From the NCBI RefSeq assembly GCF_056712565.1, contig NZ_CM160072.1: a stretch of DNA of 64,000 nucleotides. One strand, given 5' to 3'. Made by a program: the position numbers and the translations under genes. The notes beneath the pieces were generated by a model. That model saw only the letters and a program-made list of their open reading frames with translations, was not told the origin of the DNA and did no database searches. Position 1 is the stretch's first letter. Each line of letters starts with the position of its first letter. Shown here one piece after another: positions 24,153 to 26,734 of the stretch.

Positions 24153-24449
24153 ATGCCAGCGCCTTTGTATGGTGCGGATGACCCGCGCCGCTGTTCCGGC
24201 AATTCCGTATCGGAGGTGCTGGATAAATTCAGAAAAAACTACGATCGAATAATGTCTCTACCGCAGGAAACGAAAGAGGAAAAGGAATTTCGCCACTGTA
24301 TATGGCTTGCAGAGAAAGAAGAACGCGAGCGAATTTACCAGACATCAATCCGACCATTCCGCAAAGCCACATATACCCACTTCCCTGAATATATCGACCC
24401 GCGCCTGCGTAATTACCGCTCACGCTATGGCGCTATCAGTAATGACTGA
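24153..24449 (+). CDS. Hypothetical protein (98 aa), possibly Abc2-like anti-RecBCD
   Basis: AAGGA Shine-Dalgarno; size and position relative to erf match P22 abc2, but sequence not confirmed from memory. Confidence 0.45.
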   Translation: MPAPLYGADDPRRCSGNSVSEVLDKFRKNYDRIMSLPQETKEEKEFRHCIWLAEKEERERIYQTSIRPFRKATYTHFPEYIDPRLRNYRSRYGAISND

Positions 24450-24543
24450 GGAATTTACCATGAGAGGACTTGCTTAAGAGAAAGAGTTTCGGTTCTGTTA
24501 ATGACAACAAATATCTGAATGCGATGTGGCGGAGTGGGAAGAA

Positions 24544-25062
24544 ATGAAACAAATGTCACTAATTGAGATGGATGGTTTTCTGAAAGGTAAATGCATCCCA
24601 AGTGATTTAAAGGTTAACGAAACAAACGCTGAATACCTTGTCCGTAAGTTCGGTGAACTTGAATCAAAACTGGAAACGGCGTTGCGGGAGTGTAGTTCTG
24701 CTGGAATCACGATTGATAACCTTGAGGCTAAATGCGCGAAGATGGCTGCTGAAAATACCTCACTTAAGCAATCTGAGAAGGAATTTAATGACTTTTGTCG
24801 TGAGGAGTTTAGCGAATGGGAAGATGATGTTACTGAAACCCCAGCCACCGATGCTTTTCTGGCTGAAGTGCGGGCGCAGGGGGTGGATGCTGCTATAGAA
24901 GCTGCAAAAAATCTGGTGGCCCAAGAATATGAGTATAAGGATTTCAAAGCGGCGCAGAGTGATTGCTGTATGCACCCTGGTTCAGACCTGGTAGGGAAGG
25001 TTGAAATGACTGAGTGGTTAGTTGACTTTGCTGCCCAGCTTCGCAAAGGAGGCAACCAGTGA
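24544..25062 (+). CDS. Hypothetical early-left protein (~172 aa)
   Basis: ORF (track start GTG 24526; ATG 24544 preferred); stop overlaps next gene start. Confidence 0.5.
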   Translation: MKQMSLIEMDGFLKGKCIPSDLKVNETNAEYLVRKFGELESKLETALRECSSAGITIDNLEAKCAKMAAENTSLKQSEKEFNDFCREEFSEWEDDVTETPATDAFLAEVRAQGVDAAIEAAKNLVAQEYEYKDFKAAQSDCCMHPGSDLVGKVEMTEWLVDFAAQLRKGGNQ

Positions 25063-25358
25063 CTGTATGTCTTATTGATAAACGTCGACGTGGGCAACAA
25101 ATACCATCTGTTGAAATGCCGAATCACACATGGTTTTGCGTACTTGATATCGATGGTATGGATACGTTGGTTGACACTCGTCATTACTGCGATACCGCAA
25201 CAGCTACTCCGGCGAAAGCAAAGAAAATGGCTGCTCTGATAGAAAACTGGACTCCACCTGATGGTTGGTGCAATGGGAATGATCGAGATTGGCACGAAAA
25301 AATGAAGGGCTATATCTGCGATTTTTTACGTAAATGCAACGGCTTCAGGGGGATGTGA
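25059..25358 (+). CDS. Hypothetical protein (99 aa, GTG start)
   Basis: GTGA start/stop overlap with upstream ORF; Cys/Trp-rich. Confidence 0.45.
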   Translation: MTVCLIDKRRRGQQIPSVEMPNHTWFCVLDIDGMDTLVDTRHYCDTATATPAKAKKMAALIENWTPPDGWCNGNDRDWHEKMKGYICDFLRKCNGFRGM

Positions 25359-25359
25359 T

Positions 25360-25932
25360 ATGACCAAAATTAACTATCAGGCACTGCGTGAGGCGGCAGA
25401 ACGTGCAATTCCGGCAATGGAACGCCTGTTAATGTTGCCAGTTGATGATGATTTGTTAAGTGAACAGGAACTTAAGGATTACGGTGTGGATATTGATGCG
25501 CTCAACGCCTTCAAATTTCTGACCGGACCAGAAACCGTGCTGGCGCTGCTGGATGAACGGGAAAGAAACCAGCAATACATCAAACGCCGCGACCAGGAGA
25601 ACGAGGAAATTGCGCTAACGGTAGGGAAGCTGCGCGTTGAGCTGGAAGCTGCAGAGAAGCGCATTGCAGAACTGGAAGCCGAACCTGTAAGCCAAACTTA
25701 CAAGTTGAACGAGCTGTCGGGCAACTATCCGGTAACTCCGGATGGTTGGATAAGCTGTAGTGAGCGAATGCCCGCTCAAGATGATTGGATTTTAATTTAT
25801 TCAAAGCACGGCGAGTATATGGCAGGACAGGTACAAGGGGAATACGTGGAGTTGAGCGACGGCACTTTATCGTGGTTAGGGAACGCCTTGTACTGGATGC
25901 CTCTACCGGAACCGCCGCAGGAGGTTAATTGA
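25360..25932 (+). CDS. Hypothetical protein with DUF551-like C-terminus
   Basis: 190-aa ORF, coiled-coil N-half, C-terminal W...SDG...W.PLPEPP motif typical of DUF551 prophage proteins. Confidence 0.55.
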   Translation: MTKINYQALREAAERAIPAMERLLMLPVDDDLLSEQELKDYGVDIDALNAFKFLTGPETVLALLDERERNQQYIKRRDQENEEIALTVGKLRVELEAAEKRIAELEAEPVSQTYKLNELSGNYPVTPDGWISCSERMPAQDDWILIYSKHGEYMAGQVQGEYVELSDGTLSWLGNALYWMPLPEPPQEVN

Positions 25933-26126
25933 TGGTCTCCTTCGCGAAATATACGATTATTGACTGGATAGCATTCATTCAGGTTTTGCTCATCTGGTTT
26001 TATATGGCTTACAGGAGTGGACAGTGGATTGTCAGTGTAGCCTGTAGCAATGGATGGCGTTGGTGGAACCGAAAGAATAAAAAAAGCGCTGGCCTTGGCT
26101 TCGTTTTACGAAGCATTCAATCTTAA
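25929..26126 (+). CDS. Small membrane protein (65 aa)
   Basis: One strongly hydrophobic helix plus basic C-terminus; start overlaps upstream stop. Confidence 0.45.
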   Translation: MMVSFAKYTIIDWIAFIQVLLIWFYMAYRSGQWIVSVACSNGWRWWNRKNKKSAGLGFVLRSIQS

Positions 26127-26209
26127 CAGTCTTCAGCCTGGTTCTGTCGTTGTAGTCACCACTCAAAGCGGCATGACGATACAAATTCACAAGCCAAAGG
26201 AGGAAGGTC

Positions 26210-26494
26210 GTGGCTAACCTGCAACTTGCCGTTAAAGGTGAATACTTCGATGCCATGATTCGCGGAGAGAAAACGGAAGAGTATCGCCTGTGTAATGACT
26301 ACTGGAATAAGCGAATTATGTTCCGCGAGTATGACCGCCTGATTATCACAAAGGGATATCCGAAGCGCGACGATTCCAGCCGCAGAATTGACGTCCCGTA
26401 TGACGGATATGAAATCAAGACAATCACACATCCGCACTTCGGCGATAAACCGGTAAAGGTGTTCGCTATAAAGGTGAATATCGACAATGAATGA
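26210..26494 (+). CDS. ASCH/PUA-like domain protein (94 aa, GTG start)
   Basis: AAGGAGG Shine-Dalgarno 6 nt upstream of GTG; YFDAMIRGEKTEEYRL resembles the ASCH signature. Confidence 0.55.
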   Translation: MANLQLAVKGEYFDAMIRGEKTEEYRLCNDYWNKRIMFREYDRLIITKGYPKRDDSSRRIDVPYDGYEIKTITHPHFGDKPVKVFAIKVNIDNE

Positions 26495-26566
26495 TAATCC
26501 TCGCACTCGCGGGGATTTCTTTTATCTGAACTCGCTACGGCGGGTTTTGTTTTATGGAGATGATAA

Positions 26567-26734
26567 ATGCACTTCCGAGTCACAGGTGAATGGAATGGAG
26601 AGCCATTCAACAGAGTTATCGAAGCAGAGAACATCAACGACTGCTATGACCACTGGATGCTGTGGGCGCAGATAGCACATGCAGACGTAACTAATATTCG
26701 AATTGAAGAACTGAAAGAACACCAAGCCGCCTGA
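26567..26734 (+). CDS. Small hypothetical protein (55 aa; below the ORF-track cutoff)
   Basis: Own translation MHFRVTGEWNGEPFNRVIEAENINDCYDHWMLWAQIAHADVTNIRIEELKEHQAA; GGAG Shine-Dalgarno; stop inside terminator stem. Confidence 0.45.
   Translation: MHFRVTGEWNGEPFNRVIEAENINDCYDHWMLWAQIAHADVTNIRIEELKEHQAA

Follow-up and report, generated by a model that had tools for sequence, protein, structure and literature searches.

The gene block upstream of torI is very likely the distal early-left accessory segment of a CUS-3-type, P22-like prophage

Lambdoid phages carry a mosaic, dispensable early accessory region, the general nature of which is textbook knowledge. The closest described examples are the 'ea' region of P22-like phages (P22, ST104, HK620, HF4s and JEP4), the right end of phage CUS-3, lambda's exo-xis region, and the yfdP-yfdQ-yfdR-yfdS-yfdT genes of the Escherichia coli K-12 prophage KplE1 (CPS-53). 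Here, we analyze a block of seven open reading frames (ORF1 to ORF7) upstream of torI, at positions 24153-26734 of a 64,000-nucleotide stretch of DNA (hereafter, the window). The original prediction, made from the letters of this DNA, described the block as seven tightly coupled genes in the early-left accessory region of a lambdoid phage, none of them with an established function.

The block proved to be a known sequence. All of its 2,582 bases are matched at 100% identity in E. coli APEC O1, ATCC 11775, S88 and at least 12 other complete genomes, and parts of it are present in 3,862 of the 5,426 complete E. coli genomes. Two phage records from the GenBank phage collection hold the same sequence: CUS-3 (CP000711.1, 37589-40169, at its right end; genus Lederbergvirus), which has 2581 of 2582 bases in common with the block and differs by one indel, and phiv205-1, which is 99.9% identical. 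In APEC O1, the block is flanked to one side by torI, dsdC, dsdX and dsdA and to the other by erf, an N-like gene, a cI-type repressor gene, and replication and nin genes. Because of the identity with CUS-3 and of these neighbors, we locate the block inside a known P22-like prophage at argW. Very likely, it is the accessory segment ('ea', or exo-xis-type) that lies distal to the promoter in the early-left (PL) operon of a P22-like prophage of the CUS-3 type, inserted at argW beside dsdC. The predicted position upstream of torI in a lambdoid early-left accessory region is therefore borne out, in the distal part of a P22-like prophage. The segment contains abc2, five conserved small intact genes and two broken genes, and is followed by torI. 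Its sequence, gene calls and family assignments are already known from public records (phage CUS-3 and thousands of E. coli genomes). It has small weight as a discovery; the use of the analysis lies in the corrections (abc2, a frameshift fragment, an overlooked pseudogene, and the placement of torI and the true attR within the prophage). Two leads are left: the DUF7739 fold with its coupling to Ea22, and a conserved orf55 cassette with three terminators that precedes unrelated types of excisionase.

The described systems resemble the block to different degrees. CUS-3 (CP000711; K1 strains RS218, APEC O1 and UTI89; ECRS218_0056-0063, with hkaJ, hkaH and others) has the same gene order. The P22-like 'ea' region agrees with it in operon position, orientation and family order, which in ST104, HK106, HF4s and JEP4 runs abc2-hkaI-hkaH-ead-DUF4752-ASCH (or another gene)-orf55-xis-int, the individual members differing. 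Compared with this region, the window has no abc1, carries a shorter Ea22 variant and has an extra DUF7739 gene between hkaH and ead; it is further marked by a TorI-type excisionase and by an attP that separates xis from int. The lambda exo-xis region (orf60a, orf63, orf61, ea22, ea8.5, orf55) is also early and nonessential and also lies between recombination genes and xis. It has in common with the block the Ea22 family and an orf55 cassette that is nearly the same, hairpins included. However, most of the lambda genes are absent here, the recombination genes are Gam/Exo/Bet in lambda as opposed to Abc2/Erf, and the C-terminal domains of the Ea22 proteins are unrelated. KplE1 of K-12 occupies the same site and has the same torI and attR module from 26742 onward. 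Its block, too, consists of same-strand accessory genes ending at torI, and YfdS has been reported in the literature with DUF551. Otherwise, the KplE1 genes are unrelated in sequence, and abc2, DUF7739, ASCH and orf55 are missing from them.

The overall layout partly agrees with what had been predicted (Table 1). All seven ORFs lie in one orientation on the + strand, a hairpin at the end of the block overlaps the last stop codon, and the guesses of Abc2-like, DUF551-like and ASCH-like families were good. The list of seven genes nevertheless overlooked an eighth between ORF1 and ORF2, a DUF2737/hkaI pseudogene. Four junctions are tightly coupled, namely hkaI remnant/ORF2 (an ATGA overlap, kept at 24544-24547), ORF2/ORF3 (GTGA, a 4-nucleotide overlap), ORF3/ORF4 (a 1-nucleotide gap) and ORF4/ORF5 (TGATG). 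Three others are not: ORF1-ORF2 (94 nucleotides), ORF5-ORF6 (83 nucleotides in this allele) and ORF6-ORF7 (72 nucleotides with two strong hairpins). The block is thus not uniformly coupled, and the ORF1-ORF2 spacing looks loose because the hkaI remnant fills the gap. Six of the reading frames are conserved in relatives. One of these is the known anti-RecBCD gene abc2, and five are without demonstrated function in CUS-3. Searches with PADLOC, NCBIfam and PDB sequences returned no matches for ORF2-ORF7.

Table 1. Features of the block and its surroundings, in window coordinates (aa, amino acids; nt, nucleotides)
Feature	Coordinates	Strand	Basis or remark
cI-type repressor gene, LexA family	20569-21219	+	context
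Terminator-like hairpin	21218-21237	+	terminator scan
Promoter-like site, weak consensus match (9 of 12)	21312-21340	+	consensus scan
N-like antiterminator gene, near the early-left operon start	21741-22040	+	phrog_271 'anti-termination protein N-like', 126 bits; weak Pfam N_peptide match
cIII gene, plus two small Sf6-like genes	22714-22884 (cIII)	+	
erf, single-strand annealing recombinase	23141-23746	+	Pfam ERF PF04404, 150.6 bits; phrog_155; APEC O1 'ERF family protein'
SSB-like (single-strand DNA-binding protein) gene	23746-24129	+	phrog_44 single-strand DNA binding protein, E 7.6e-30; weak TIGR00621 ssb match
ORF1, abc2, anti-RecBCD protein 2, 98 aa	24153-24449	+	Pfam PF11043, phrog_656, P22 Abc2 identity
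DUF2737/hkaI (PF10930) pseudogene	24460-24547	+	start codon and 3' half kept; 77-nt internal deletion after 24470
ORF2, HkaH/EaE-family protein, 172 aa	24544-25062	+	phrog_614, 227 bits
ORF3, DUF7739 (PF24881) protein, 99 aa	25059-25358	+	77.6 bits vs cut-off 27
ORF4, Ea22-family protein, 190 aa	25360-25932	+	Ead_Ea22 PF13935 and DUF551 PF04448
ORF5, truncated product of the DUF4752 gene, 65 aa	25929-26126	+	frameshift fragment
DUF4752 gene (PF15944), inactivated, 95 aa if intact	25932-26217	+	+1 A in A-run 26079-26085
ORF6, small ASCH/PUA-like protein, 94 aa	26210-26494	+	phrog_625 full length, 174 bits
Two tandem terminator-like hairpins, upstream of ORF7	26496-26547	+	RNA fold -24.7 kcal/mol, z -5.2
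ORF7, lambda Orf55 (lambdap35) homolog, 55 aa	26567-26734	+	phrog_676 positions 1-55 of 55
Intrinsic terminator-like hairpin over the ORF7 stop codon	26724-26743	+	terminator scan; -13 kcal/mol
torI, the prophage's own excisionase (recombination directionality factor)	26792-26992	+	protein identical to K-12 TorI WP_001163428.1
attR core CTGCAGGGGACACCAT, 3' end of argW	27066-27081	+	exact match, single occurrence in window, downstream of torI

ORF1 is a true Abc2 ortholog. It matches the Anti-RecBCD_p2 profile (PF11043) at 206.8 bits (cut-off 25), with residues 1-98 on profile positions 1-97, and phrog_656 at 190.8 bits. End to end, over 98 residues, it is ~88% identical to the P22 Abc2 of PDB entries 8b1t and 8b1u (phmmer against 8b1t_A, E 1.4e-56). 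Residues 1-66 contain only two substitutions and Pro68 is conserved, whereas the C-terminal 20 residues diverge and ORF1 has one extra residue. As in P22, the gene lies shortly downstream of erf, here at a distance of ~400 nucleotides on the same strand and with the SSB-like gene in between. In ST104 and P22 it is abc1 that is found between erf and abc2; the window is without abc1 there, the SSB-like gene holding its position, and neither an Abc1 nor an Arf partner was identified. Abc1 is needed for full P22 recombination activity (for P22 Abc2 itself, see Murphy 2000). Given the ~88% identity to a P22 protein whose structure on RecBCD has been solved, ORF1 does have an established function, contrary to what had been claimed for all seven ORFs. 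In the cryo-electron microscopy structures of RecBCD-Abc2 (8b1t/8b1u), Abc2 residues 3-66, with the helices that contact RecC, are modeled on RecC; the protein has been proposed to help load the phage Erf recombinase, and Pro68 has been inferred to occupy the active site of the host PpiB (Wilkinson et al. 2022; PMC9836394). The strong homology suggests that Abc2 of the window likewise works with Erf on RecBCD, including binding to RecC. As published work on the P22 ortholog has it, Abc2 would redirect RecBCD rather than inhibit it, so that the phage Erf can act.

The pseudogene that follows was revealed by alignment with HK106 and ST104. The 77-nucleotide deletion shifts the frame and translation stops after five codons, only positions 28-53 of the Pfam DUF2737 profile still being encoded. 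In APEC O1, the NCBI Prokaryotic Genome Annotation Pipeline (PGAP) labels the remnant 'incomplete', and the same deletion is present in CUS-3.

ORF2 belongs to a family whose members are named hkaH in CUS-3 and HK620; the corresponding name in HF4s and JEP4 is EaE/Eae. Based on an alignment with ST104 orf9, HK106 gp33, HF4s EaE and JEP4 Eae, it consists of a conserved 40-residue N-terminus, a variable segment that is probably a coiled coil, then a TPATDAFLAEVRAQ motif and finally a C-terminus that varies as well. The N-terminus is near-invariant among the homologs (MKQM.LIEMDGFLKGKCIP.DLKVNETNAEYLVRKF). Since every homolog begins with MKQM, the ATG at 24544 is the most likely start, and the predicted length of 172 residues stands. 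The variable segment gives weak matches to ZapB/SMC-type coiled coils, and the C-terminal part matches PHROG families that also hold Ea22-type proteins.

ORF3 represents DUF7739, a small family with 45 cluster representatives (E<=1e-3) among 1.84 billion proteins. Full-length homologs are 92-100 residues long, go down to 25% identity and share the motifs NGTWF, TNDP, W.PPD.W and C.GF. Because length and motifs are kept across them, ORF3 is a real, constrained protein. An AlphaFold model built from the homolog alignment (predicted local distance difference test, pLDDT, 93.4; predicted template modeling score, pTM, 0.85) has a compact alpha/beta fold. A Foldseek search of this model against the PDB returned nothing significant; the nearest solved neighbors, none of them significant, are DMP12 and CdiI (protein/DNA-mimic inhibitors) and YfbM. 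A DNA-mimic mechanism of the DMP12 type was considered and rejected because ORF3 is not acidic (13 Asp+Glu against 14 Lys+Arg, isoelectric point 7.6). In the contexts examined, DUF7739 is restricted to phages. One distant relative (32% identity) is located in another prophage, where it stands between erf and int in a region that also contains an MT-A70 methyltransferase. Another relative (28% identity) is found between a Mu F-like head gene and a Mu-like protease gene of a metagenomic Mu-like phage (L089 4712-4999, L090 642-929). That DUF7739 might be a new small protein inhibitor in a counter-defense or host-modulating role, with Ea22 as its partner or a host nuclease or nucleoid protein as its target, strikes us as improbable though worth naming.

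Co-occurrence across phages was surveyed in 80 viral contigs with a close relative of ORF3, a sample obtained with a single-protein query and hence made up of close relatives only. They contain ~60 combinations of window genes, always in the same order; that is, gene order is kept and gene content is highly mosaic. Two of the junctions are stable: in 50 of 52 loci an Ea22-type gene begins immediately behind ORF3, and in 37 of 50 a C-terminus of the ORF2 type abuts ORF3.

ORF4 combines an Ead_Ea22 region (PF13935, 104.3 bits, cut-off 27, residues 3-104) with a C-terminal DUF551 domain (PF04448, 43.5 bits, cut-off 22, residues 129-187), and its central motif LLDERERNQQYIKRRDQENE.IALTVGKLRVELE is common to lambda Ea22. 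This is the architecture of Ea22 variant V2, in which the Ead_Ea22 region is joined to a portable DUF551 C-terminal domain. Variant V2 has been described in Shiga toxin (Stx) phages, as has the division of the protein into three parts: a short N-terminus, a central coiled coil and a portable C-terminal domain (PMC10834534). According to the same study, lambda Ea22 is tetrameric and pro-lysogenic, properties known only for the Ea22 of lambda and some Stx phages, and its C-terminal domain alone does not reproduce the pro-lysogenic effect of the full-length protein. The claim that no gene of the block has an established function therefore needs qualification here as well, as ORF4 is in a family with a characterized pro-lysogenic member. 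Plausibly, ORF4 biases the lysis/lysogeny decision as lambda Ea22 does, to judge from its family membership. In APEC O1, PGAP annotates ORF4 as two genes, a 'partial' Ead/Ea22 one and a small one; the frame is continuous nonetheless and collinear with ST104 orf8 and the JEP4 homolog.

ORF5 had been taken for a 65-residue membrane protein. It is not a gene of its own but the 5' frameshift fragment of a DUF4752 gene. The A-run at 26079-26085 has seven A residues (A7) in the window and six (A6) in CUS-3 RS218 and all diverged homologs, and the extra A is the sole difference from CUS-3 RS218 across 2.6 kb. Against the DUF4752 profile, ORF5 scores 51 bits (positions 2-47 of 84), compared with 117 bits for the A6 allele (positions 2-84), which would extend as far as 26217, 8 nucleotides into ORF6. 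PGAP labels the gene 'frameshifted' in APEC O1. We surveyed the run in 518 E. coli records matching a 100-nucleotide probe. Exactly 29 of them have A7, including APEC O1, S88, ATCC 11775 and several O1/O2:K1 strains; 105 records, including UTI89, IHE3034 and NU14, are otherwise identical with A6, and the more diverged E. coli copies all have the shorter, A6-type span. Of 13 close copies in viral contigs, 11 have the gene intact; the other two are broken, by the same frameshift in one case and by a stop codon in the other. Programmed frameshifting or transcriptional slippage at A7 was also considered. Since A6 occurs in all other homologs and A7 in 29 near-identical records, a simple mutation is more likely, low-level slippage still being possible. 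The better reading is that A7 is a lineage-specific inactivating mutation in a sub-lineage of K1-type E. coli, and the allele could serve as a lineage marker within K1-type strains.

ORF6 falls below the threshold of the Pfam ASCH profile PF04266 (14.3 bits against a cut-off of 21.2, residues 6-28 only) and has no match in NCBIfam, whereas NCBI and PGAP records still name the protein 'ASCH domain-containing'. Homologs form 671 clusters. The best 120 of these are 75-99% identical to ORF6, mostly 93-96 residues long, and span Escherichia, Salmonella, Klebsiella, Enterobacter, Citrobacter, Erwinia and Lonsdalea (Enterobacterales). With the AlphaFold model (pLDDT 84.6), the best 14 Foldseek matches in the PDB are all ASCH proteins (among them 3iuw, 2z0t, 1xne, ZmASCH 5gus/5y6b and the ac4C amidohydrolase YqfB 9kyh), with template modeling (TM) scores of 0.49-0.60 and a best E-value of 9e-3. 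YTH and Lon-N domains, also PUA-like, come next. Because its 14 best structural neighbors are ASCH proteins, ORF6 is assigned a predicted ASCH/PUA-like fold although it is below the sequence threshold. In HK106 (L006 3884-4684), a queuine tRNA-ribosyltransferase-like gene occupies the ASCH slot between DUF4752 and orf55, which hints that this slot may host nucleic-acid-modification functions.

The last 250 bp of the block contain three intrinsic-terminator-like hairpins and form a cassette composed of two tandem hairpins, a ribosome-binding site, ORF7 and the terminator hairpin over its stop codon. ORF7 is 98% identical to the lambda protein. The DNA of the ~250-bp cassette is ~97% identical in lambda, HK106, JEP4 and HF4s, despite different upstream genes and excisionase types, and the tandem hairpins are near-identical in lambda, JEP4 and HF4s. 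The gene immediately downstream of orf55 encodes the excisionase in lambda, HK106, HF4s and a Klebsiella prophage; in JEP4, which has no annotated excisionase, it encodes the integrase. The close copies differ too little for a coding test, and we therefore used the Klebsiella homolog (76% identity), which lies directly before excisionase and integrase genes. Over 50 codons, the differences at codon positions 1, 2 and 3 number 9, 2 and 24, respectively, with 18 synonymous and 10 non-synonymous codon changes. This third-position bias indicates that ORF7 is a genuine gene. The upstream flank of the Klebsiella homolog is unalignable; its terminator hairpin is retained despite sequence change. For lambda Orf55, a high-confidence model with a T7 Gp2-like fold has been published along with a model of binding to RNA polymerase that its authors declare speculative (PMC8614690). 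Coordinates of lambda tL3 were not found in the literature, and the hairpins around orf55 are therefore not equated with tL3. The one match in an Rfam scan of 20000-28500, an RsmY-like one over the hairpins, was below threshold (19.7 vs 57 bits), and we dismissed it.

The orf55 cassette (~26488-26760) and the torI module (26742-27100) occur independently in E. coli genomes, and the latter is the only part of the window shared with K-12. Three results identify torI as the prophage's own excisionase gene and the last gene before attR: the core follows torI; free phage HF4s has the same 16-mer CTGCAGGGGACACCAT between its torI-type excisionase gene and its integrase gene; and in prophage-free strains the last 35 nucleotides of a 621-nucleotide query match tRNA-Arg. 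The recombination module has been described as shared by KplE1, CUS-3 and HK620, with the 16-nucleotide core sequence quoted (PMC2951348). The CUS-3 GenBank record ends before torI and labels TTGCAGGTTCGATTCC (window 26757-26772) 'attR core'. By comparison with the core given above, the deposited CUS-3 boundary looks ~310 bp too short. In the stretch from the orf55 terminator to the start of torI (26757-26790), there are pentamers of the sequences GTTCG and ATTCG (CAGGTTCGATTCCCTATTCGGAG). The first of these is among the TorI binding-site sequences that have been mutated (PMC2951348), and the pentamers could be candidate TorI sites in attR or an autoregulatory site. The same stretch resembles a tRNA T-arm; ARAGORN finds no tRNA in the window, so the tRNA-like string GGTTCGATTCC (26763-26773) belongs to no detectable tRNA gene.

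By analogy with lambda and P22, the block would be silent in the lysogen and, after induction or infection, would be transcribed from PL by N-modified RNA polymerase as part of one long message. The modified polymerase would read through the three hairpins into torI, whereas unmodified polymerase would be blocked. If antitermination is needed to pass the hairpins, the excisionase would be made only when antitermination is active. Such terminator gating upstream of torI is plausible because TorI overproduction alone triggers excision of KplE1 (PMC2951348). No sigma-70-like promoter was found inside the block in a consensus scan of 20500-27300, and these 6.8 kb contain three promoter-like sites against 11.4 expected from shuffles. 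Orf55, the ASCH-like protein, DUF7739 and HkaH are conserved small early proteins that most likely bind and modulate host factors. DUF2737 and DUF4752 are inactivated in this copy. In lambda, the exo-xis genes including ea22 (orf55 was left out) are nonessential by genome-wide CRISPR interference (PMC10695390). This, together with the two decayed genes, suggests by analogy that the whole segment is dispensable, and it evolves by cassette exchange between lambdoid phages.

Several points weigh against reading the block as such an accessory segment of the PL operon. The PL promoter, the nut site and the read-through of the hairpins are carried over from lambda and P22 by analogy, and the promoter-like site (21312-21340) fits the consensus weakly (9 of 12). 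The roles assigned to five of the six intact genes would derive from outside phages of this type, Abc1 has no counterpart here but an SSB-like gene in its place, and the proposed binding of Orf55 to RNA polymerase is an explicitly speculative model.

Rival readings of the block can be proposed. It might be the P22-like counterpart of lambda exo-xis, biasing the developmental decision and the efficiency of induction, and we regard this as a serious possibility, at rather less than even confidence. Published work shows that exo-xis genes of lambda and Stx phages alter lysogenization and induction, and Ea22 is pro-lysogenic (PMC10834534). ORF4 shares the N-terminal and central region of Ea22, ORF7 is lambda Orf55, the block stands immediately before the excisionase gene as exo-xis does in lambda, and ORF3 and an Ea22-type gene are adjacent in 50 of the 52 loci. 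However, only two of the eight genes have lambda exo-xis homologs, orf60a, orf61, orf63, orf73 and ea8.5 being absent. The DUF551 C-terminal domain of ORF4 differs from that of lambda Ea22, so any transfer of function would go by family membership, and the evidence comes from lambda and Stx phages, not from P22-like ones, to which it would extend by analogy.

The original prediction pointed to a slot where anti-RecBCD, anti-restriction and host-takeover genes cluster. The first part holds in the form of abc2, while nothing supports anti-restriction or host takeover for the other genes. A counter-defense island, in which DUF7739, the ASCH-like protein, HkaH or Orf55 inhibits a host restriction or abortive-infection system, appears doubtful to us. 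It would fit the early-transcribed position adjoining abc2, the annotation of Ral earlier in the operon in the CUS-3 record, the queuine tRNA-ribosyltransferase-like gene in the ASCH slot of HK106, the MT-A70 methyltransferase near the distant DUF7739 relative, and the relation of the ASCH/PUA-like fold to domains that read modified nucleosides. Yet no sequence match to a characterized anti-defense protein was found, including in NCBIfam, PADLOC and the PDB; DUF7739 is not acidic, which makes a DNA-mimic mechanism unlikely; and one of its relatives is located among Mu-like head genes.

It is very unlikely that the block is decaying, functionless DNA in a prophage becoming cryptic. Two of the eight genes are indeed inactivated (by the 77-nucleotide deletion and the +1 frameshift), and what K-12 retains of a related prophage at this site is no more than a 10-kb remnant. 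On the other hand, the other six reading frames are unbroken and show conservation across genera, with kept lengths and third-position substitution bias, the same sequence is found in the phage records CUS-3 and phiv205-1, and the frameshift is confined to 29 of 518 records. Also very unlikely is that ORF7 and its flanking hairpins are an autonomous 'moron' expressed in the lysogen for the benefit of the host: the cassette at 26488-26760 is bounded on both sides by terminator-like hairpins, it is passed as one piece among lambda, HK106 and P22-like phages, whose excisionase types differ, and the 621-nucleotide query (including torI and attR) matches 3556 of 5426 E. coli genomes, many of the matches being the cassette alone with other excisionases, but the consensus scan found no sigma-70-like promoter upstream of ORF7, the 20 nucleotides before its start hold only a ribosome-binding site, the gene is always the last before xis or int and oriented as the early operon, and its product is short (55 residues) and predicted to be cytoplasmic and acidic.

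The order on the + strand is cI-type repressor, N-like, cIII, erf, ssb-like, the block, torI and the attR core. The segment from the repressor gene to erf (20569-23130), which is of the APEC O1 type, differs from that in the CUS-3 RS218 record, where it is ~1.4 kb longer and annotated with ral, three hypothetical genes, cIII and kil. As the repressor-erf segments differ while the distal block is identical, the immunity-proximal mosaic is not that of RS218. Opposite ORF2 and ORF3, an antisense ORF of 265 residues (24498-25295, - strand) is probably a by-product of coding-strand composition. Having no Pfam match, it and the other long antisense ORFs (26156-26506 and 26299-26637) were treated as chance occurrences; one of these carries an annotation in the old record for CUS-3. 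Downstream of the dsd genes, positions 31000-46000 have a G+C content of 0.38-0.46 compared with ~0.50 elsewhere, and the start of this stretch is, by position in APEC O1, the emrKY-evgAS region.

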